Shown here piece by piece: positions 1,384 to 40,438 of a stretch of 64,000 nt of DNA. How positions within the stretch are numbered: position 1 is the first letter of the stretch; every line of letters begins with the position of its first letter. The notes beneath the pieces were generated by a model that was given only the letters and a program-made list of their open reading frames with translations, was not told where the DNA came from and ran no database searches. The DNA comes from Escherichia phage vB_EcoM-E33, in sequence record OL780484.1; one strand, written 5' to 3'. The position numbers and the translations under genes were made by a program.

Positions 1384-1411
1384 TATAAATACCTCCTATA
1401 CTCAGGAGGTA
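1384..1411 (+). promoter_or_regulatory. T4-type late promoter TATAAATA (1384-1391) followed by hairpin TACCTCCT/AGGAGGTA that contains the lysozyme SD
   Basis: TATAAATA 23 nt upstream of e ATG; 8-bp inverted repeat 1390-1397/1404-1411 around SD GGAGG. Confidence 0.55.
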
Positions 1412-1413
1412 TT

Positions 1414-1908
1414 ATGGATATTTTTGATATGTTACGTCAAGACGAAGGTCTTGATTTAAATCTTTATAAAGACACTGAAGGTTATTGGACTATTGGCATT
1501 GGCCAATTGATTACTAAGAACCCTTCTAAAGATGTTGCTCGTGCTGAACTTGATAAGCTTATGGGTCGAGTTTGTAATGGTCGTATTACTATGGCTGAAG
1601 CTGAACAACTCTTTAACCGATCGGTTGAAAATGCTCGTAGAGCTATTCTGCGTAATCCTAAATTGAAACCTGTTTATGATGTACTGGACGAAGTTCGTCG
1701 TTGTGCTTTAATTAACATGGTCTTCCAAATGGGTGAAGCAGGCGTAGCAGGGTTCACTAACTCTTTACGTATGCTCCAACAGAAACGTTGGAACGATGCG
1801 GCAGTTAACCTGGCTCAATCCCGTTGGTATAAACAAACTCCTAATCGTGCTAAGCGCGTGATTTCAACATTTAAAACAGGTACTTGGAAAGCATATGAAA
1901 ACTTATAA
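1414..1908 (+). CDS. e: endolysin (T4 lysozyme)
   Basis: 164 aa; near-identical to remembered T4 lysozyme over its length (MxIFxMLRxDEGL...YKDTEGYxTIGIG...RTGTWxAYxNL). Confidence 0.95.
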
Positions 1909-2293
1909 TGAATTTATCGCAGAGAATGTAATTCCTGCATCTAAAGAACTTTTGGCGATGTTTGAATCTGAAGAGTTCACTGAAGAACTGAATGAGAACC
2001 TGACCCAGGCCACTCCTCAGGTTATTCGCGTTCGTAATGCCCTTCAGACAGGCATGCAGGCTCGTGTATCTAAGACTATGAAGCTGGCATTCACCACTTC
2101 TAAAAATGAAGACTATGGTGATGGTATTGCAATGAACACTGGGCAGTATTATGTTGAGTGGAATGGTGAAACCGGTACTGCTAAGATTCGCCAAACGAGA
2201 GCAGCGGGTGGCAAAATGTTGGACCTTAAACTGAACGTTAAAGAGAAAGACGTCGCGGCTTTGTTCAAGAATTGGATGAAGACTTACAAATAA
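1895..2293 (+). CDS. internal head protein (Ip) with capsid targeting sequence
   Basis: N-terminus [10 protein letters not shown] matches the T4 internal-protein capsid targeting sequence; 132 aa. Confidence 0.65.
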
Positions 2294-2343
2294 GTTTACA
2301 TCTCCTGTAGTCATGATACTATAGACCTATCAACTACAGGAGA
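2294..2343 (+). promoter_or_regulatory. early promoter (GTTTAC 2294-2299, TACTAT 2317-2322) with 10-bp inverted repeat TCTCCTGTAG/CTACAGGAGA covering the denV SD
   Basis: -35/-10 spacing 17 with TG extended -10; arms at 2301-2310 and 2334-2343. Confidence 0.6.
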
Positions 2344-2349
2344 TTAAAA

Positions 2350-2766
2350 ATGACTCGTATCAACCTTACCTTAGTATCTGAATTGGCTGACCAACACTTA
2401 ATGGCTGAATATCGTGAATTACCACGTGTTTTCGGTGCAGTTCGTAAGCATGTTGCTAATGGTAAACGTGTCCGTGATTTCAAAATCAGTCCTACTTTTA
2501 TCCTTGGCACAGGCCATGTTACATTCTTTTACGATAAGCTTGAATTTTTACGTAAGCGACAAATTGAGCTTATAGCCGAATGTTTAAAACGTGGTTTTAA
2601 TATCAAGGATACTACTGTCCAGGACATTAGTGACATTCCTCAGGAATTCCGTGGTGACTATACTCCACACGAAGCTTCTATTGCTATATCTCAGGCCCGT
2701 TTGGACGAAAAAATTGCACAACGCTCTACCTGGTACAAACATTACGGCAAGGCTATTTACGCTTAA
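2350..2766 (+). CDS. denV: endonuclease V (pyrimidine dimer DNA glycosylase)
   Basis: 138 aa; near-identical to remembered T4 endonuclease V ([28 protein letters not shown]...). Confidence 0.95.
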
Positions 2767-2808
2767 TTAAATCCGTGATAGAATACTTCTATCAACTTAA
2801 GGAATAAT

Positions 2809-3168
2809 ATGAAAACTTACCAACAATTTATTACTGAATCTACTCAGCGCATTAACGAAGCTATGTCTCCTGAACAATTGGCTAAGGCCAAAGAAGGGCT
2901 GAACCCATCTGAAGTTTTTAAAGTTACAGGTAAAGACTTTGCTTCCATGGCCACTAACCAGAGCTTGGCTAAAGAACTTAAATCTAAATCTAACTTCATT
3001 CATGCTACATGGAATGGTGATTCTCTTACTTCAATAAGTGTGTACAATAAAAAAGGTCTCCTTAAGAGTTCTTATGGCGCGGATGCCATCCGTGTTTCTA
3101 AATCAGATTGGCATAAAAACACTACTAAAGCAGAAAAACCTCATAACCCGGCACTAGACCATCTTTAA
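2809..3168 (+). CDS. internal head protein (Ip) with capsid targeting sequence
   Basis: N-terminus MKTYQQFITEST; 119 aa; first ~36 nt shared with the next gene. Confidence 0.65.
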   Translation: MKTYQQFITESTQRINEAMSPEQLAKAKEGLNPSEVFKVTGKDFASMATNQSLAKELKSKSNFIHATWNGDSLTSISVYNKKGLLKSSYGADAIRVSKSDWHKNTTKAEKPHNPALDHL

Positions 3169-3176
3169 GGCTTAAT

Positions 3177-3434
3177 ATGAAAACTTACCAAGAATTTATT
3201 ACAGAATCCACTTTAGTTTCTAAACGTTGGAATATGATTGTAAACGTTAAACCTTCCGGCACTGAAGTTTCTATGGCCGACCCTAATGATGACGAACTTG
3301 AGCACGCTTTTAGCTCTAAAGAAACTGACGAGAAAGTGGTTAAGCAACTGGTTGCTGATGCAGATCAACTTCGTAAAGTAGCAGATGTTGTTAAGCTGTT
3401 TACTAAGAAAGGTTTTAAACACGAAGAACGTTAA
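3177..3434 (+). CDS. internal head protein (Ip) with capsid targeting sequence
   Basis: N-terminus MKTYQEFITEST; 85 aa. Confidence 0.65.
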   Translation: MKTYQEFITESTLVSKRWNMIVNVKPSGTEVSMADPNDDELEHAFSSKETDEKVVKQLVADADQLRKVADVVKLFTKKGFKHEER

Positions 3435-3584
3435 TTAGCATTTTTAAATGGGAGCAACCTGGACCTCACAATTCTGTGAGGGACTCCCGCCAACCTGTAA
3501 TAAGGTCGAGCCCAAGTGCGGTAATGGGTAAATGCAGAAAGGGACGAATTAATGTGCCAAGGAACGGCCCTCAAAGGAAATACT
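3435..3584 (+). other. structured non-coding spacer (nested hairpins GGGAG..CCTCAC..GTGAGG..CTCCC)
   Basis: About 150 nt without a convincing ORF; nested inverted repeats; no cloverleaf recognised. Confidence 0.3.
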
Positions 3585-4112
3585 ATGAAATTTTTAACTC
3601 CCATTTATCTAACCTTAATGCACGCCTTCGCTGAACGCGCCATTGAACGTTTAGACTCAGACCAATATACCTGGTATGAACCTGCTTCAAGAATGCAAGA
3701 GTTTGGTACTCTTCGACTTGATGGCGGACGCCAAACAGGTAAAACAAGTGCCCTTGCTCAGTTCGCCGCTGATTGGGTTTCCAAGGGTAATGATGTGATT
3801 GTTATGTCGAGTTCTTCGCATCGCTCGCGAGAAATTTGTAATGTAATAAAACAGGTTTCTAAGGCACACCCACATCTCCAAGTCGAAGGTCCTGGTTTTG
3901 TTGTCTATGATACTGTGCGCAGTTTCCTTGATGAAGACAATTTCCATAAGTATCGTGGACTATCTGTTACTCGATTATTGATTATTATCGAAGAGCCAAT
4001 GCGCCTTCCAGCGATGGATAAGTTCTATGAAGCTTACCAGGTAATGATTAATAAATTTATGTGCCAAGGCGACAAGCCTTTGCCTCTGTTCTTTGTGATA
4101 GGAATGCAATGA
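3585..4112 (+). CDS. hypothetical protein with P-loop-like motif (GGRQTGKTSA)
   Basis: ORF 3552-4112; start placed at ATG 3585 after AAGGAAA SD. Confidence 0.45.
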   Translation: MKFLTPIYLTLMHAFAERAIERLDSDQYTWYEPASRMQEFGTLRLDGGRQTGKTSALAQFAADWVSKGNDVIVMSSSSHRSREICNVIKQVSKAHPHLQVEGPGFVVYDTVRSFLDEDNFHKYRGLSVTRLLIIIEEPMRLPAMDKFYEAYQVMINKFMCQGDKPLPLFFVIGMQ

Positions 4113-35726: not shown

Positions 35727-36227
35727 ATGAAAAAGTTAATTATCGCAATGAGTATGCTCCTATCAGGTTGCGCGGTCCAATATGGTGATACAGTTTCGGC
35801 CGATGAAGTTGGTAAAGCTCGTATCGCAGCTGAACAGAAACAATTCGATGGCGAAATGAAATTCCGTGCAGGTTCTGGACTTGTGTACACCCGAGCTAAT
35901 AATCAATGCGGTAATAACTGTGCAAAATATGCTCAACAAGAAATCGAATTCCAACGTGAACAAGAGTCCAAGCGTGAAGCGGTACTAGCCAAACACCAGG
36001 CAGAAATGAAGCGTCAAGATGATTTGTACAAAAAGCAGAAACTGTATGCGATGTGCGTAAACCATATCAATCTACAGATTTCCATCCACGAGGCTCGTTA
36101 TTACGAAATGCTCGAAACCGAGAGCTTCGGTAAAGCTCGTGATTATAAGAAACAAATCGATAAGCTCAAGACCAAAGTACCGGCGGCAATAGAACAGTGT
36201 ATTGAAATCGGTAAAGATAAGATTTAA
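35727..36227 (+). CDS. putative lipoprotein
   Basis: Signal peptide with lipobox LLSGC; 166 aa. Confidence 0.5.
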   Translation: MKKLIIAMSMLLSGCAVQYGDTVSADEVGKARIAAEQKQFDGEMKFRAGSGLVYTRANNQCGNNCAKYAQQEIEFQREQESKREAVLAKHQAEMKRQDDLYKKQKLYAMCVNHINLQISIHEARYYEMLETESFGKARDYKKQIDKLKTKVPAAIEQCIEIGKDKI

Positions 36228-36287
36228 GCAATACCAATTTATTAAAAATAGTGTATAATGTACCTACATTCACTTGAGGAACAGATA

Positions 36288-37961
36288 ATGAAAAAGGTTG
36301 TTATTTTAGGCGCGGGTCTTGGCTCACGGTTGTATCCAATTACCAACGAAATCCCGAAGGTACTGGTTAACTACAAACAACATACTGTATTAAAACATTT
36401 GTATGATTTGTATAGTAATCAATCAGATGAAATTATTCTGGTTATTCACAGCAAATTTAACGACCTCGTTAAAGGCTATATTAAATCCATTAACATGATT
36501 AATAGTGATAAGCCTAAATTCACTATTCGTAACGTTGATGTTGCCAATGGTTCGGCTCATGCTATCGATTGCATTGCCGAAGATATCATTGGGCACAATG
36601 TCTTGTTTAACTGGTGTGATATTATTCCTGAAGGTCATAAAGTTGAGTGGGATAACGACTACTGTTATACCTATGGGACTGACTGTCGTTTTACATTTGA
36701 AGAACCGTACTTGCGTGAAATTGGTACCGGTGGTGGCGTAGTTGGCTTGTATCAGGTGGCTAATTGGACAGGTTTCGACCGTTCTAATTATGGTGAAGAC
36801 CTTGCTGACAACCTGGATTCAATGGTCCATTTGACTGAACGTAAGTTAGACTTTGTAGTTGATGTTGGTGACAAACTGAAACTGGCTAAGGCGCATGAAG
36901 ATTCTGAAATTAACCGTGAATTTAATAAATTAGAGTTCACCGAGAATCTAGCTATTAAAGTACCAACTAACGAATTGGGTAAAGAAATCCAATCTAAAGA
37001 AATCAATTGGTATAATTCTATTGATTCCGAATTCGTTCCTAGCATTGTAGACTTTGCTCCAGGCGAATTCATTAAAATGGAACGTATCTTTGGTCGAACC
37101 ATGGCAGATGCCTACCGGTTTATGTCTAAAGAAACTAAAGTCCTAATGGTTTATAAGGTTATTAGTGCATTACGTTCGTTCGGTGGAACTATCGATAATC
37201 CGTCCGATGAGCAATGGTATTCTGATGTTAAGAAAGAAGTATTGGACAAGGTCCTTATTCGTAATGCTTCTATTGCCGGATTGATTGAAGGCTTTGCTCC
37301 ACAGGGTATTACCCATGTTAACGACTTCAAGGTAGGCGACCCAGAAAAACTTCTTCGTCACGCCTTAGAAATTCTGTCTGAACATAAAGAACCGTACCAA
37401 CTTATTCATGGCGACCCGCACTACAGTAATATTATGTTGTCGGACGAAGGTAATATTAAAATCATCGACCCACGTGGTTATTTTGGTAATAGTTCTAAAG
37501 GCCCTGCGATTTATGATGAAGCTAAGGTGCTTTATTCTATCGATGGTTATGACAAATTTAACTCTGACCCTCTATGGGGTGGCTTAACTCGTAACGGAAC
37601 TCGTGTATTCGTTGATATTGAAAAGGTTATGCCTTTAGATGATATTCCGATGTGTACATTTAAGCACAAGCTCTGGATTGCTGTTATCTGGATGGCATTG
37701 GCAGGTTACTTTAAAAATAACCCTCTGAAAGCTCTGGGCGCTTATTACAATGGGCTATATCAACTGAGTGTGCTGCTGAAGCGGCATCCTCGTAAGCGTA
37801 AGCTTATCACAGGTGAATTCGTTGATGAAGTTCGCGACCCTATCACGGCTCAAATTATCACTCGTTGTCCTGATAAGTGGGTTTTGCTTGACCAGGAAAC
37901 TGGTGTAAAATATAAACCTACAGGTTCTACCGAACTCCACAAACAATGGAAGAAAATTTAA
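36288..37961 (+). CDS. bifunctional sugar-phosphate nucleotidyltransferase / kinase-like protein
   Basis: N-term ILGAGLGSRL (G-x-G-x-R nucleotidyltransferase motif); C-term HGDPHYSNIML...IIDPRG (APH/choline-kinase-like catalytic loop); start at ATG 36288 after GAGGA. Confidence 0.55.
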   Translation: MKKVVILGAGLGSRLYPITNEIPKVLVNYKQHTVLKHLYDLYSNQSDEIILVIHSKFNDLVKGYIKSINMINSDKPKFTIRNVDVANGSAHAIDCIAEDIIGHNVLFNWCDIIPEGHKVEWDNDYCYTYGTDCRFTFEEPYLREIGTGGGVVGLYQVANWTGFDRSNYGEDLADNLDSMVHLTERKLDFVVDVGDKLKLAKAHEDSEINREFNKLEFTENLAIKVPTNELGKEIQSKEINWYNSIDSEFVPSIVDFAPGEFIKMERIFGRTMADAYRFMSKETKVLMVYKVISALRSFGGTIDNPSDEQWYSDVKKEVLDKVLIRNASIAGLIEGFAPQGITHVNDFKVGDPEKLLRHALEILSEHKEPYQLIHGDPHYSNIMLSDEGNIKIIDPRGYFGNSSKGPAIYDEAKVLYSIDGYDKFNSDPLWGGLTRNGTRVFVDIEKVMPLDDIPMCTFKHKLWIAVIWMALAGYFKNNPLKALGAYYNGLYQLSVLLKRHPRKRKLITGEFVDEVRDPITAQIITRCPDKWVLLDQETGVKYKPTGSTELHKQWKKI

Positions 37962-38320
37962 TGCATCTGTGTTTTGATATCGATAATACCATTACTCACT
38001 GGCAAGATGACCGTGATTACGAAAACTTTAAACCGGACACCGAAATGGTGTCCATGATTAATAAGCTTTATGATGAAGGGTACGAGATTACCTTGTTCAC
38101 TGCCCGTGGTATGACTTCATGCGGCCCGGGTCGAATCTTGGTTGAAGTAGTTCCTGCATTAGTTAAGAACCTTGAAAAGATTGGATTGAAATATCACAAT
38201 CTGCTTACACATAAGCCGAGTTATACTTTTATCATCGATGACCGAGCAATCCGTCCTGACCACTTTAAAGAAATGGTTCGTGAAGGAACTCTTGAAACCT
38301 ATAAGGCATATCATCCGTGA
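37961..38320 (+). CDS. HAD-superfamily phosphatase-like protein
   Basis: Motif I FDIDNTIT (DxDxT), LFTARG, IIDDR; TAATG overlap with upstream gene. Confidence 0.5.
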   Translation: MHLCFDIDNTITHWQDDRDYENFKPDTEMVSMINKLYDEGYEITLFTARGMTSCGPGRILVEVVPALVKNLEKIGLKYHNLLTHKPSYTFIIDDRAIRPDHFKEMVREGTLETYKAYHP

Positions 38321-38853
38321 AACCAAAAATCATTGTTATCGACGGCCCGGATAATTCCGGGAAGTCTACTTTAATTGAATCACTTTTATCTGATAAGAAA
38401 TATCGTCTTATTGATTTCCCTAAAAAGATTAATGGCAAATGCATTTCATTAGGGACCGATAATGACAAGGCTTTAGTCGAGACGTTGTATAAGTTTTTAG
38501 ACCCTAATTTCGTTTACATCCTTGACCGTGGTTATCCAAGTAATATTGTTTACTCGGGATTCCTTCGCGGTGAAATGGACCCTTATGTAGAACTGGAAGA
38601 TTGGAAAAGGTTTAAATCTGAATTCAATATTATTGAGGTTATTTTAACCCGTAATCCACTGGATAAAGACTTTGAAGATGACCTTATTAAATTAACCAAA
38701 GATGAGTTCAACCTAACTATCCGCCAATACGAAACATGTTTTGAAAACGTGTTTAAAATCTTAAATCACGACGGCCATAATAACTTGCTTAACGTCGATA
38801 TGGTAGAATTAAAACGTCTGAATGAATATATTGAAAATAAGGTGAATAAATGA
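38317..38853 (+). CDS. thymidylate-kinase-like P-loop nucleotide kinase
   Basis: IVIDGPDNSGKSTL Walker A, RLIDFP and LDRGYPSNIVYSGF resemble TMPK motifs. Confidence 0.5.
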   Translation: MKPKIIVIDGPDNSGKSTLIESLLSDKKYRLIDFPKKINGKCISLGTDNDKALVETLYKFLDPNFVYILDRGYPSNIVYSGFLRGEMDPYVELEDWKRFKSEFNIIEVILTRNPLDKDFEDDLIKLTKDEFNLTIRQYETCFENVFKILNHDGHNNLLNVDMVELKRLNEYIENKVNK

Positions 38854-39548
38854 AACACATTACCGCTGTTAGTTTTGAAAACGCGTTTAAGCAAATGAAC
38901 GAAGAAATCCTGGAAGCTCCACAGTTTGCAGTTGATTCTCGTATCGGCCGTTGTTATGAAATTGGTTCTGCTTCGGTAGAAGTACTGGATGCAAGCACCT
39001 ATAAATTCACCGACCCTCGTATTAATCGTATCAACTATGATTATGCCGAATCTTTCTGGAAGTTTATGATTTCTGGTGGTACTGACGCCGCCGAAGCATT
39101 TAAGGAATACCCTAATGTTGCTAAGTTCATTGATAAGCCGAAAAGTGACGTATTGCCTGCAAACTTCAACACTTTCTATGGACCTAGAATTGTGGCCCAA
39201 CTCCCAGCCTTACTTAAAGAGCTTAAAGAGAAGCCTAACTCAAGACGAGTTGTGTTCCAAATTCTCCAAGAACAAGACCAAGCCCTCCTTGATTCTGACG
39301 AATCCTTAGAATATCCATGTACTGATTCAGTGACATATTATATTCGTGATGGACGTCTTTATGCACATACCCATATGCGTTCACAGAACTGTGCTATTGT
39401 TATGCAGCTGGATTTCTATCTGCAGGGTAAACTGATGGCCTTTATTGCTGAACAGTGTGGTGTTGGTCTGGGTACGTATTCCCATACTATGGTTAGTGCA
39501 CACGTATTTGAACGTGATTTTGACTACGTTCGAGGATTCCTGAAATGA
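38850..39548 (+). CDS. thymidylate-synthase-family pyrimidine hydroxymethylase (divergent gp42-like)
   Basis: KPNSRRVVF, catalytic-Cys motif YPCTDSVTYYIRD, MRSQN, SAHVF align to remembered T4 gp42 motifs; low overall identity. Confidence 0.5.
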   Translation: MKHITAVSFENAFKQMNEEILEAPQFAVDSRIGRCYEIGSASVEVLDASTYKFTDPRINRINYDYAESFWKFMISGGTDAAEAFKEYPNVAKFIDKPKSDVLPANFNTFYGPRIVAQLPALLKELKEKPNSRRVVFQILQEQDQALLDSDESLEYPCTDSVTYYIRDGRLYAHTHMRSQNCAIVMQLDFYLQGKLMAFIAEQCGVGLGTYSHTMVSAHVFERDFDYVRGFLK

Positions 39549-40438
39549 GTTTGTTTATCGTTCCTATTTTCAGTATGCGTAGTTACGAAACAGGTGAATA
39601 TGCCGTCCTTAAGGACGGTAATTTTCAACTCCATTTAAACCGTGCTTGCCAAGGTGATTATCTGGCTTATCCTAGAAATTCGAGCGATATCAAAGAATGC
39701 ATTGAATTATTTCCTGAACTGAATTTTGTACCTCTTTGGTATAAAGAAAATGCTTATGAAACTCGTAAACATTTTTGGTCTGAAAATGAGTTCGTTGTTG
39801 ATTCGTTAATCGAATACTATGACTGCTCAGGATTGGTAACCGATATCACAGGTTATGATGGCACTCAGACTGTACAATTCAACTTTAACATTACAATGGA
39901 CCCTGAAGTTCCTCGTTATTATATCGACGAGTTTATTGATACCGACGTGTCCTCAGTTGAACGTTCGATTTATACCACAGTCCTGAATCAATGCCAGAAA
40001 GACGTCCTGGTGTCACGAGGTGCGTCCTCTGATAAGATTTTTGTAGACCAAAAGGTAATTAATCCGGCAGTAATTGAGCGTTACTCTGAAGGCCTAGCGC
40101 CTATTAAAATTGATGGTATTTTCCATCCATTCCGTATCTCTGATAAATGTTATCAATTCGAAAGAGTTGTAGACCAAGCTGCGGCTGAAGGTTCTCGCCT
40201 TTATATCACCGATCCGAATGATTCATTTAAGCGTGAAGACTATCGTCCTGATGTAGAGATTATTAAATTCAAACCGAGTAAGGTTGAATATTATCAGATT
40301 CTGAAATCAAGACCTCATATCATTTATCATGAGAATCCCAGTTTAGTATTTCATCCTGGCCTGGCTGAATTCATTTATTTCGGTGCCCACATCCATTCTG
40401 AGCACGAAATGCCAAGTTATGAGGACGTGGTCCTTTAA
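39545..40438 (+). CDS. hypothetical protein (occupies T4 beta-glucosyltransferase slot)
   Basis: 297-aa ORF coupled to the upstream gene; no motif recognised. Confidence 0.45.
   Translation: MSLFIVPIFSMRSYETGEYAVLKDGNFQLHLNRACQGDYLAYPRNSSDIKECIELFPELNFVPLWYKENAYETRKHFWSENEFVVDSLIEYYDCSGLVTDITGYDGTQTVQFNFNITMDPEVPRYYIDEFIDTDVSSVERSIYTTVLNQCQKDVLVSRGASSDKIFVDQKVINPAVIERYSEGLAPIKIDGIFHPFRISDKCYQFERVVDQAAAEGSRLYITDPNDSFKREDYRPDVEIIKFKPSKVEYYQILKSRPHIIYHENPSLVFHPGLAEFIYFGAHIHSEHEMPSYEDVVL

Follow-up and report, generated by a model that had tools for sequence, protein, structure and literature searches.

Why do three small proteins that otherwise share no recognizable sequence begin with the same ten residues, and why do their genes lie side by side in one short region of a phage genome? 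We examined this question in a stretch of 64,000 nucleotides from Escherichia phage vB_EcoM-E33 (OL780484.1; hereafter the window), where three open reading frames (ORFs), here named ipA, ipB and ipC, flank the gene denV between genes e and vs.8. The window belongs to a Dhakavirus: it is 99.5% identical to Escherichia phage WG01 (Straboviridae, Tevenvirinae, Dhakavirus), and phages JS98 and JS10 are also related. In the original prediction, the three ORFs were taken for genes of internal proteins (IPs) that carry the capsid targeting sequence (CTS) of phage T4 and form a variable set of effectors. Our analysis makes it likely that ipA, ipB and ipC encode T4-type IPs that would be packaged through the CTS, injected into the host and exchanged between phages as cassettes, with protection against host defences as their most probable role.

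The leader resembles that of T4 at the residues that were found to matter by experiment. The ORFs at 1895, 2809 and 3177 all start with ATG, and their translations begin with MKTY(N/Q)(E/Q)FI(A/T)E as predicted, one of them reading MKTYQEFITE. Amber-suppression mutagenesis of T4 IPIII assigned a targeting role to residues 4 and 7 (Tyr and Phe in IPIII) and a processing role to residues 8 and 10, and the first 10 residues of IPIII suffice for the packaging of foreign proteins such as GFP (PMC9026906). Y4, F7, I8 and E10 are all kept in the three candidates, and their residues 8-10 (IAE in ipA, ITE in ipB and ipC) match the (L/I)-x-E motif of the gp21 prohead protease. The match at four positions defined by mutagenesis, together with the location at the ipIII/ipII locus of T4, supports the identification of the leader as the T4 CTS; judged by sequence, ipA, ipB and ipC are members of the internal-protein class. 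A degenerate DNA pattern of the leader occurs at exactly three sites in the window (both strands, up to 3 mismatches) and at none in 100 dinucleotide-preserving shuffles. Over nucleotides 1-30 the identity is 28/30 between ipB and ipC, 24/30 between ipA and ipC, and 22/30 between ipA and ipB; over nucleotides 1-36 the corresponding values are 33/36, 24/36 and 23/36, and in the next 36 nucleotides pairwise identity falls to 7-12/36. The description of the first ~36 nucleotides as near-identical thus holds for ipB and ipC, but not for ipA, which is only about 65-80% identical to the others. A departure from the leader is seen in RB69ORF123c (L083 2465-2794), a distant homologue of ipB whose leader, MKTYQEFIAA, carries Ala in place of Glu at position 10; following the rules derived from T4 mutagenesis, such a leader should allow packaging while preventing cleavage at that site.

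Behind the leader, the three bodies are as different as had been supposed: BLASTP similarity, both among them and with T4 IPI, IPII and IPIII, is confined to the first 10-17 residues. In tblastn searches with IPIII and IPII queries from T4, WG01 and JS10, only the leaders matched, and no IPIII or IPII body was found in the 64-kb window. The predicted mature proteins have masses of 8.5-13.8 kDa. ipA, with a pI of 8.8 (9.9 if cleaved at E34), and ipB (pI 9.5) are basic, which compares with the basic T4 IPs, and their predicted body types are alpha+beta and alpha/beta, respectively. In ipA a second putative protease site, (L/I)-N-E at residues 32-34 (nt 1988-1996; LNE34 in the window), is invariant across the family and is retained even in the distant members from Serratia and Erwinia phages, which have lost residues 11-29. 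This suggests that ipA has a longer propeptide, as does T4 IPI. A possible second site is also present in ipB, where residues 15-17 follow the pattern I-N-E/A (INE17 in the window).

The three families are unannotated in the databases, and those of ipA and ipB are confined to phages. GenBank gives ipA and ipC as hypothetical protein in every record examined and ipB likewise, with the exception of two evidently misassigned names; Pfam and NCBIfam hold no family for any of the three. In PHROGs, ipA (phrog_15461) and ipB (phrog_3966) are both listed under unknown function, ipC matches through its leader only, and weak leader-only matches were seen besides. ipA is found in 49 phage records, with members in Dhakavirus, in Klebsiella Marfavirus (~85% identity) and in Serratia phage 4S and Erwinia phage Cronus (~50%), and in 18 clusters of a set of 5.8 billion proteins. 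ipB has 12 close records and a further 77 at ~33% identity, mostly from RB69-like phages and including RB69ORF123c. ipC is known from six phage records (five sequenced phages), all 100% identical, and from one metagenomic cluster at 96%. For none of the bodies did the searches lead to a fold or a function. A PDB sequence search with ipA returned the target-recognition domain of M.HhaI (E = 0.011, residues 189-275), but the family profile lost this match entirely and gave equally weak ones to flagellin D3 (E = 0.044), so that we rejected the M.HhaI lead as compositional. The match of ipB to 9hnh was rejected as well, because it covers only 28 residues and the target is a repeat protein that reiterates a short segment; the same search with ipC found nothing. 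A HMMER search with the ipA profile against 1.84 billion representatives recovered only phage proteins of IP type that start with the leader, apart from repeat matches to beta-propeller-like proteins, which run through a GxGIAxNTGxxYVxW motif and are uninformative. One metagenomic protein, P0022 (194 aa), consists of the leader, a body like that of RB69p125/F13, a linker with M-T-E-S and L-T-E-S, and an ipA-type body; it looks like a two-body internal polyprotein that arose by cassette fusion, with linker sites that resemble the protease site at the leader end.

The location of the genes agrees with this classification. The segment between e and vs.8 on either side of denV is one of the two classical polymorphic IP loci (e-denV and 57B-tRNA), as seen in comparison with T4, JS10, WG01, RB69 and Marfa. 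In the window the order is nudE, e, ipA, an early promoter with a stem-loop, denV, ipB, ipC, a 150-nt spacer and vs.8 (Table 1), whereas T4, in the same orientation, has e-ipIII-ipII-denV-vs.8 with both IP genes between e and denV. Leader-bearing ORFs on both sides of denV are also found in RB69 and Klebsiella phage Marfa. The 3' end of e overlaps the start of ipA by 14 nt, and Shine-Dalgarno sequences are present before the IP genes (8 nt upstream in the case of ipC). The interval 1895-3434, originally described as three IP genes, does contain these three ORFs, but it also contains denV, which the description had left out.

The expectation that the set is variable was confirmed when we compared the e-vs.8 locus of 13 Dhakaviruses: the repertoire varies even between near-identical phages. 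Six body families follow the leader in these loci (A, B and C for those of ipA, ipB and ipC, II and III for homologues of IPII and IPIII, and D), and they occur in 10 combinations, with A, III and II in the slots upstream of denV and B, then C or D, downstream. Writing denV as a slash, the arrangements are A / B C in the window, A III / B C in WG01, A III II / B C in ABTNLS3, A II / B D in KIT01, III / B C in PSD9 and LQ5, A / D in IME281, A III II / D in MX01 and C6, III A / D in JS10, A III / B D in ABTNLsp5, and A III II / B D in AnYang. The window is the only sampled phage that has A, B and C and is without homologues of IPII and IPIII at the locus. WG01, JS10 and most sister phages have a 198-aa IPIII homologue with 86-87% identity to the T4 protein. 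This homologue is missing from the window (2293-2350, compared with L001 2394-3154); it has also been lost from IME281, which has neither II nor III, and from KIT01, which has no III. These losses are notable in view of the phenotype of T4 ipIII mutants, in which head assembly is slowed and the burst size is about 40% (PMC9026906). The leader is attached to many more bodies than those at this locus: a single small leader-pattern scan of IMG/VR, pooled with the fetched loci, gave 138 ORFs with at least 24 unrelated bodies, which exceeds the "at least 10" given in recent literature. A second Dhakavirus IP locus, outside the window, encodes leader-bearing proteins of 74 and 90 aa that represent two further body families (L019, L026 and L074; QL01-, IME281- and vB_EcoM_005-like contigs), and the full repertoire of the window phage is therefore probably larger than three.

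How the bodies are exchanged can be read from the borders at base level. When the window (B-C-vs.8) is aligned with KIT01 (B-D-vs.8), identity extends through the end of ipB, the Shine-Dalgarno sequence and nucleotides 1-30 of the next gene; the left break of the swap between ipC and ipD falls exactly after nucleotide +30, at the codon after Glu10, and identity resumes at a conserved core in the spacer. The D body is found behind an after-ipB context in KIT01 and AnYang and behind an after-denV context in JS10, MX01 and IME281, the II body stands behind an ipIII-type context in KIT01, and the A body occurs behind two contexts. One upstream context can precede different bodies, and one body can follow different contexts. 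In AnYang the ipB body is flanked by perfect 42-nt direct repeats that comprise the Shine-Dalgarno sequence and the CTS (TTAAGGAATAAT plus the 30 nt of the leader), and recombination between these repeats would give precisely the arrangement of MX01 and IME281, relatives that do not have ipB. The proposal that the shared 5' end provides a recombination handle is borne out because the actual breaks between cassettes fall at the end of the 30 leader-coding nucleotides. Read from these alignments, the leader is a crossover site, and the putative packaging signal doubles as a site of recombination.

Promoter/stem-loop repeats are used at the cassette borders as well. At 2295-2322 the window has a sigma-70 early promoter (TTTACA-16-TACTAT with TG) inside a stem-loop (-20.7 kcal/mol, z = -5.9); the 3' arm of this structure spans the Shine-Dalgarno sequence of denV. 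In WG01, ipIII lies between two copies of GTTTACATCTCCT; the window, which has no ipIII, has a single copy. A GTTTAC(A/T)TCTCCT motif marks the e/III, A/III, III/denV and A/denV borders of the relatives; the equivalent borders of T4 have GTTTAC early-promoter variants, with GTTTACATCTCCT itself at II/denV. The segment 2295-2348 thus shows the hallmark of promoter-early stem-loop (PeSL) elements, a sigma-70-like early promoter with a stable stem-loop beside a variable ORF that is repeated at the borders. Experiments in T4-type phages have demonstrated that PeSL elements bring about the excision and shuffling of accessory ORFs (PMC2839356).

Two further observations were made at or next to this junction, which is also conserved before denV in T4. 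The stem-loop pairs the denV Shine-Dalgarno sequence (AGGAG) with sequence upstream and places the -10 box of the early promoter in the loop. Transcripts from the promoter at 2295-2322 would not include the 5' arm and would expose the ribosome site, and in read-through transcripts from upstream it would be hidden. The 3' end of ipA (2276-2293) reads ...W-M-K-T-Y-K-stop (ATGAAGACTTACAAATAA), like the first five leader codons followed by a stop; an old recombination event through a leader may have left this trace. At these codons WG01 and MX01 have TATAAATAA, which is an exact late-promoter box immediately before ipIII, and the window has TACAAATA.

Table 1. Features of the e-vs.8 locus and of the putative sugar-modification cluster in the window.
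Feature	Position	Strand	Remarks
Late promoter box TATAAATA, exact T4-type	1384..1391	+	23 nt before the start codon of e
Gene e, T4 lysozyme homologue	1414..1908	+	Left anchor of the IP locus; annotated e in WG01, JS10 and T4
ipA, 132 aa, internal-protein candidate, PHROG 15461	1895..2293	+	ATG ORF; CTS at nt 1895-1924
PeSL-like cassette junction	2295..2348	+	Sigma-70 early promoter inside a strong stem-loop
denV (endonuclease V), conserved	2350..2766	+	Divides the IP cluster into two cassette arrays
Sigma-70 early-type promoter-like site upstream of ipB	2756..2784	+	TTTACG-17-TAGAAT with TG
ipB, 119 aa, internal-protein candidate, PHROG 3966	2809..3168	+	ATG ORF; CTS at nt 2809-2838
ipC, 85 aa, internal-protein candidate, orphan body	3177..3434	+	ATG ORF; CTS at nt 3177-3206
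GC-rich non-coding spacer	3435..3584	+	Right-hand border of the last cassette slot; near-invariant 38-nt core at ~3489-3527
vs.8 homologue	3585..4112	+	Right anchor of the locus
NTP-transferase and APH-type (sugar-)kinase fusion, 567 aa	36258-37961		RB69-like sugar-modification cluster
P-loop kinase-like protein	38317-38853		RB69-like sugar-modification cluster
Thymidylate-synthase-family protein	38850-39548		RB69-like sugar-modification cluster

What these proteins may do is suggested by their counterparts in T4. The injected proteins Ip1, Ip2 and Ip3 have only the leader in common, and each inhibits its own GmrSD type IV enzyme, without cross-protection (PMC12373910); the statement in the original prediction that IPs include anti-restriction factors has thereby gained strength since the classical work on IPI. 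By analogy with Ip1-3, the CTS (MKTYxxFIxE) would dock ipA, ipB and ipC onto the scaffolding core of the prohead, where gp21 would cut after Glu10 and, in ipA, probably also after the invariant L-N-E34. The mature proteins of 8-14 kDa would stay in the head with the DNA and enter the next host with it. There they would most likely neutralise defences against incoming sugar-modified DNA (type IV enzymes of the GmrSD or BrxU kind, or similar systems), one inhibitor for one enzyme variant. The shared 5' module, i.e., the Shine-Dalgarno sequence and the 30 nt of the CTS, and the early-promoter/stem-loop junctions would serve as short patches of homology for in-frame swap, deletion and insertion, and close relatives would carry different repertoires as a result.

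The DNA to be protected is likely to differ from that of T4. Arabinosyl-5-hydroxycytosine is the predicted product of Dhaka-, Marfa- and Mosigviruses (PMC13326640), and most records of the ipA and ipB families derive from these genera, the distant ipA copies in Serratia and Erwinia phages aside. At 35727-40438 the window has a cluster that resembles the cytosine-arabinosylation genes of RB69 (Table 1), and the annotation of the corresponding WG01 segment lists no T4-type glucosyltransferase. The DNA of the window phage thus probably contains arabinosylated 5-hydroxycytosine and not glucosylated 5-hydroxymethylcytosine (glucosyl-hmC). GmrSD-family enzymes also cut arabinosylated phage DNA (PMC6024577; PMC13390438). 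A further-reaching proposal, which we put forward only tentatively and consider rather doubtful as a whole, is that ipA, ipB and the orphan ipC are unrecognised injected inhibitors tuned to defences that sense arabinosylated 5-hydroxycytosine DNA (GmrSD or BrxU variants, DNA glycosylases), and that the 30 nt of the leader act as an in-frame exchange site which, with the promoter/stem-loop junctions and the spacer element, would turn the locus into an integron-like but recombinase-free trade in effectors.

Several points weigh against a role of the three proteins as injected anti-defence factors. The seven genes ip4-10 gave no reproducible GmrSD target in the tests of Silas et al. (PMC12373910), and this makes it unsafe to generalise from IP to GmrSD inhibitor. 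A literature search found no proteomic or genetic data on ipA, ipB, ipC or their homologues in JS98, Dhakavirus, Marfavirus or RB69. The mature form of ipC, at ~8.5 kDa, has a pI of about 6 (6.1) and is near-neutral, unlike the basic T4 IPs, and its body has no other relatives that could support selection on it. Finally, ipB and ipC are without an exact late promoter upstream, where the closest signals are early-type sigma-70 promoters. Among the five exact late boxes in the 64 kb, only the one before e lies near the IP cluster, where it precedes e and ipA alone; it is likely to be the source of late transcripts over these two genes. T4 ipII and ipIII share the early-type upstream architecture of the window genes.

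If the proteins are packaged, they need not act in the host. The main alternative is that ipA, ipB and ipC enter the head through their leader and serve the virion itself, in charge neutralisation, DNA organisation or assembly of the scaffold and core, with the diversity of the bodies reflecting weak constraint. Such a role has been suggested for T4 IPIII, on whose mutant phenotype, given above, it draws; T4 IPs, each present in about 300 copies, are also abundant and basic (PMC9026906), a charge that ipA and ipB share, and the ip4-10 result fits this explanation too. However, the absence of IPIII from the locus in the window phage, IME281 and KIT01 argues against any one IP being structurally indispensable, and bodies come and go in combination between phages with more than 94% identity elsewhere. 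ipC is not basic, and the strong conservation of bodies across genera (~84-90% for ipA between phages of E. coli and Klebsiella) is a better fit to specific targets than to generic polycations. Moreover, defence targets are now known for all three T4 IPs. The free loss of IPIII and IPII and the cross-genus conservation of the bodies weaken the case for a virion-internal role, which we consider unlikely.

A second alternative dispenses with packaging: the shared 5' end could be no more than a side effect of recombination or gene duplication within a hyperplastic region, and the proteins could be early cytoplasmic accessory factors. The early-type promoters directly before denV and ipB, where no exact late box is found, are in keeping with this, as is the extension of the shared module into the non-coding Shine-Dalgarno region. 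However, what is conserved is an in-frame peptide that keeps the functional CTS residues and the (I)-x-E site in all 24 sampled body families, and the homology stops precisely at the cleavage site and not at the start codon. In addition, ten leader residues are enough to package GFP in T4 (PMC9026906), and IPII and IPIII, which are true virion proteins of T4, have the same promoter architecture; we therefore regard this explanation as very improbable. It is still less probable that at least one of the ORFs, most of all ipC, is a cassette remnant that is in decay or no longer works. This notion can appeal to the restriction of ipC body relatives to copies 96-100% identical (six phage records and one metagenomic cluster) and to the absence of a PHROG match beyond the leader, but the ipC ORF is intact in all copies, with a full leader and its Shine-Dalgarno sequence in place, the 96% variant has 3 substitutions that leave the frame undisturbed, and ipA and ipB are conserved across genera. 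Injected proteins with an anti-defence role thus remain the reading that we prefer.

The spacer behind ipC, whose core provides the homology anchor to the right of the last IP slot, merits separate attention. Its near-invariant 38-nt core, C(C/T)AACCTGTAATAAGGTCGAGCNNNRGYGCGGTAATGRG, may also be written CYAACCTGTAATAAGGTCGAGC...GCGGTAATGRG. Across Straboviridae, 968 phage records contain matches to the spacer, and the core is nearly invariant where examined, including T4, in which it lies inside the annotated 5' end of vs.8 (L003 3865-3887, minus strand). Copies are also found in unrelated phages, namely Vequintaviruses and Pseudomonas phage PsgM04F, on the same strand as tRNA arrays and either ~550-600 nt upstream of them or inside them (L085, L086, L091, L092, L094, L097). 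The pattern of variation indicates that the core is not protein-coding: synonymous changes are absent, every variable position would alter the encoded residue, RB69-type copies have a 1-nt indel, and in the window the core is out of frame with vs.8. A hairpin before the core differs in sequence while its pairing is conserved in each clade examined, with the exception of KIT01/JS10-type copies, where the pairing is unclear; RNAalifold proposes two invariant hairpins within a helix, with compensatory changes in one clade. No Rfam family, tRNA or tmRNA was found for the spacer element, and its minimum free energy is no better than that of shuffled sequences. We found no true bacterial copies of the core (13 bacterial matches to a 17-mer are chance hits without extended similarity) and no mention of its sequence in a literature search. 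The core is a candidate for an unannotated structured RNA or DNA site, and this observation may be more novel than that on the IPs. It also bears on the annotation of T4, where the annotated start of vs.8 (L003 3793-3956, minus strand) lies upstream of the core; the same stretch is out of frame in the window and interrupted in KIT01. Because a conserved non-coding core lies within this 5' end, the N-terminal ~44 codons of T4 vs.8 are probably mis-annotated, and the real start is probably the downstream ATG (MRTF...).

Injected IPs act before phage genes are expressed and so decide the survival of modified DNA during the first seconds in a defended cell. To our knowledge, after fifty years of work only Ip1-3 have known targets, each being specific for one GmrSD variant. 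With ipA, ipB and ipC there are now concrete candidates that could be matched to orphan type IV restriction systems. Two of the families are conserved across phage genera used in therapy work (against E. coli, Salmonella, Shigella and Klebsiella), in a lineage whose DNA probably carries arabinose and not glucose. Natural variants provide near-isogenic comparisons of host range: IME281 is without B and C, PSD9 without A, and the window without II and III.

It was recognised in the 1990s that polymorphic bodies in hyperplastic loci carry the CTS leader, and the functional rationale for this is recent. The concept of one conserved leader on unrelated polymorphic bodies is thus not new (Repoila et al. 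1994, as cited in PMC12373910; PMC9026906), and what we add is modest: three leader families that the databases leave unannotated, one of them an orphan, a phage without T4 IPs at the locus, breakpoints at base level, and the link to the arabinose lineage. The closest known system is the set of T4 IPs (IPI, IPII and IPIII of the Black laboratory; Ip1-3 of Silas et al. 2025), which the window genes resemble in the key residues of the CTS, the (L/I)-x-E site, the small size, the locus and the mutually unrelated bodies. The T4 proteins are packaged, processed, injected and active against type IV restriction, a likeness that would extend to the window genes by analogy. The window genes differ from them in bodies without detectable similarity to IPI, IPII or IPIII, in the absence of homologues of IPII and IPIII, which are present in many sister Dhakaviruses, and in cassettes on both sides of denV. 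The phages also differ in their DNA, with arabinosylated 5-hydroxycytosine probably replacing the glucosyl-hmC of T4, and so the targets of the proteins may differ.

A second comparison is with Ip4-Ip10 and the other polymorphic IPs of T-even phages, in which, as described by Repoila et al. 1994 (as cited in PMC12373910), many unrelated ORFs likewise follow one leader at a polymorphic locus. Unlike ipA, ipB and ipC, these belong mainly to the ipI locus (57B-tRNA) of Tequatrovirus-type phages; in tblastn searches, ipA and ipC were found only outside records named Tequatrovirus. The borders of the window cassettes recall the PeSL elements (Arbiol et al. 2010, PMC2839356), in that a strong sigma-70-like promoter with a stem-loop lies directly between small accessory ORFs and that a repeated motif flanks the ipIII cassette present in WG01 and missing from its 99.5% relative. 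PeSL elements were defined in RB49 and phi1, however, and the window locus adds an in-frame patch (Shine-Dalgarno sequence and CTS) at which the body is replaced and the leader is kept.

More broadly, the locus shares with anti-defence hotspots, such as anti-CRISPR loci, and with integron arrays the clustering of small, unrelated and rapidly exchanged genes between conserved flanking recombination sites, and a presumed one-to-one match with variants of host defence. In contrast to these systems, no dedicated recombinase is evident at the IP locus, where exchange presumably relies on the general recombination of T4-type phages acting on homologies of 30-50 nt, and the conserved site of the IPs lies within coding sequence, where it doubles as the putative packaging signal.

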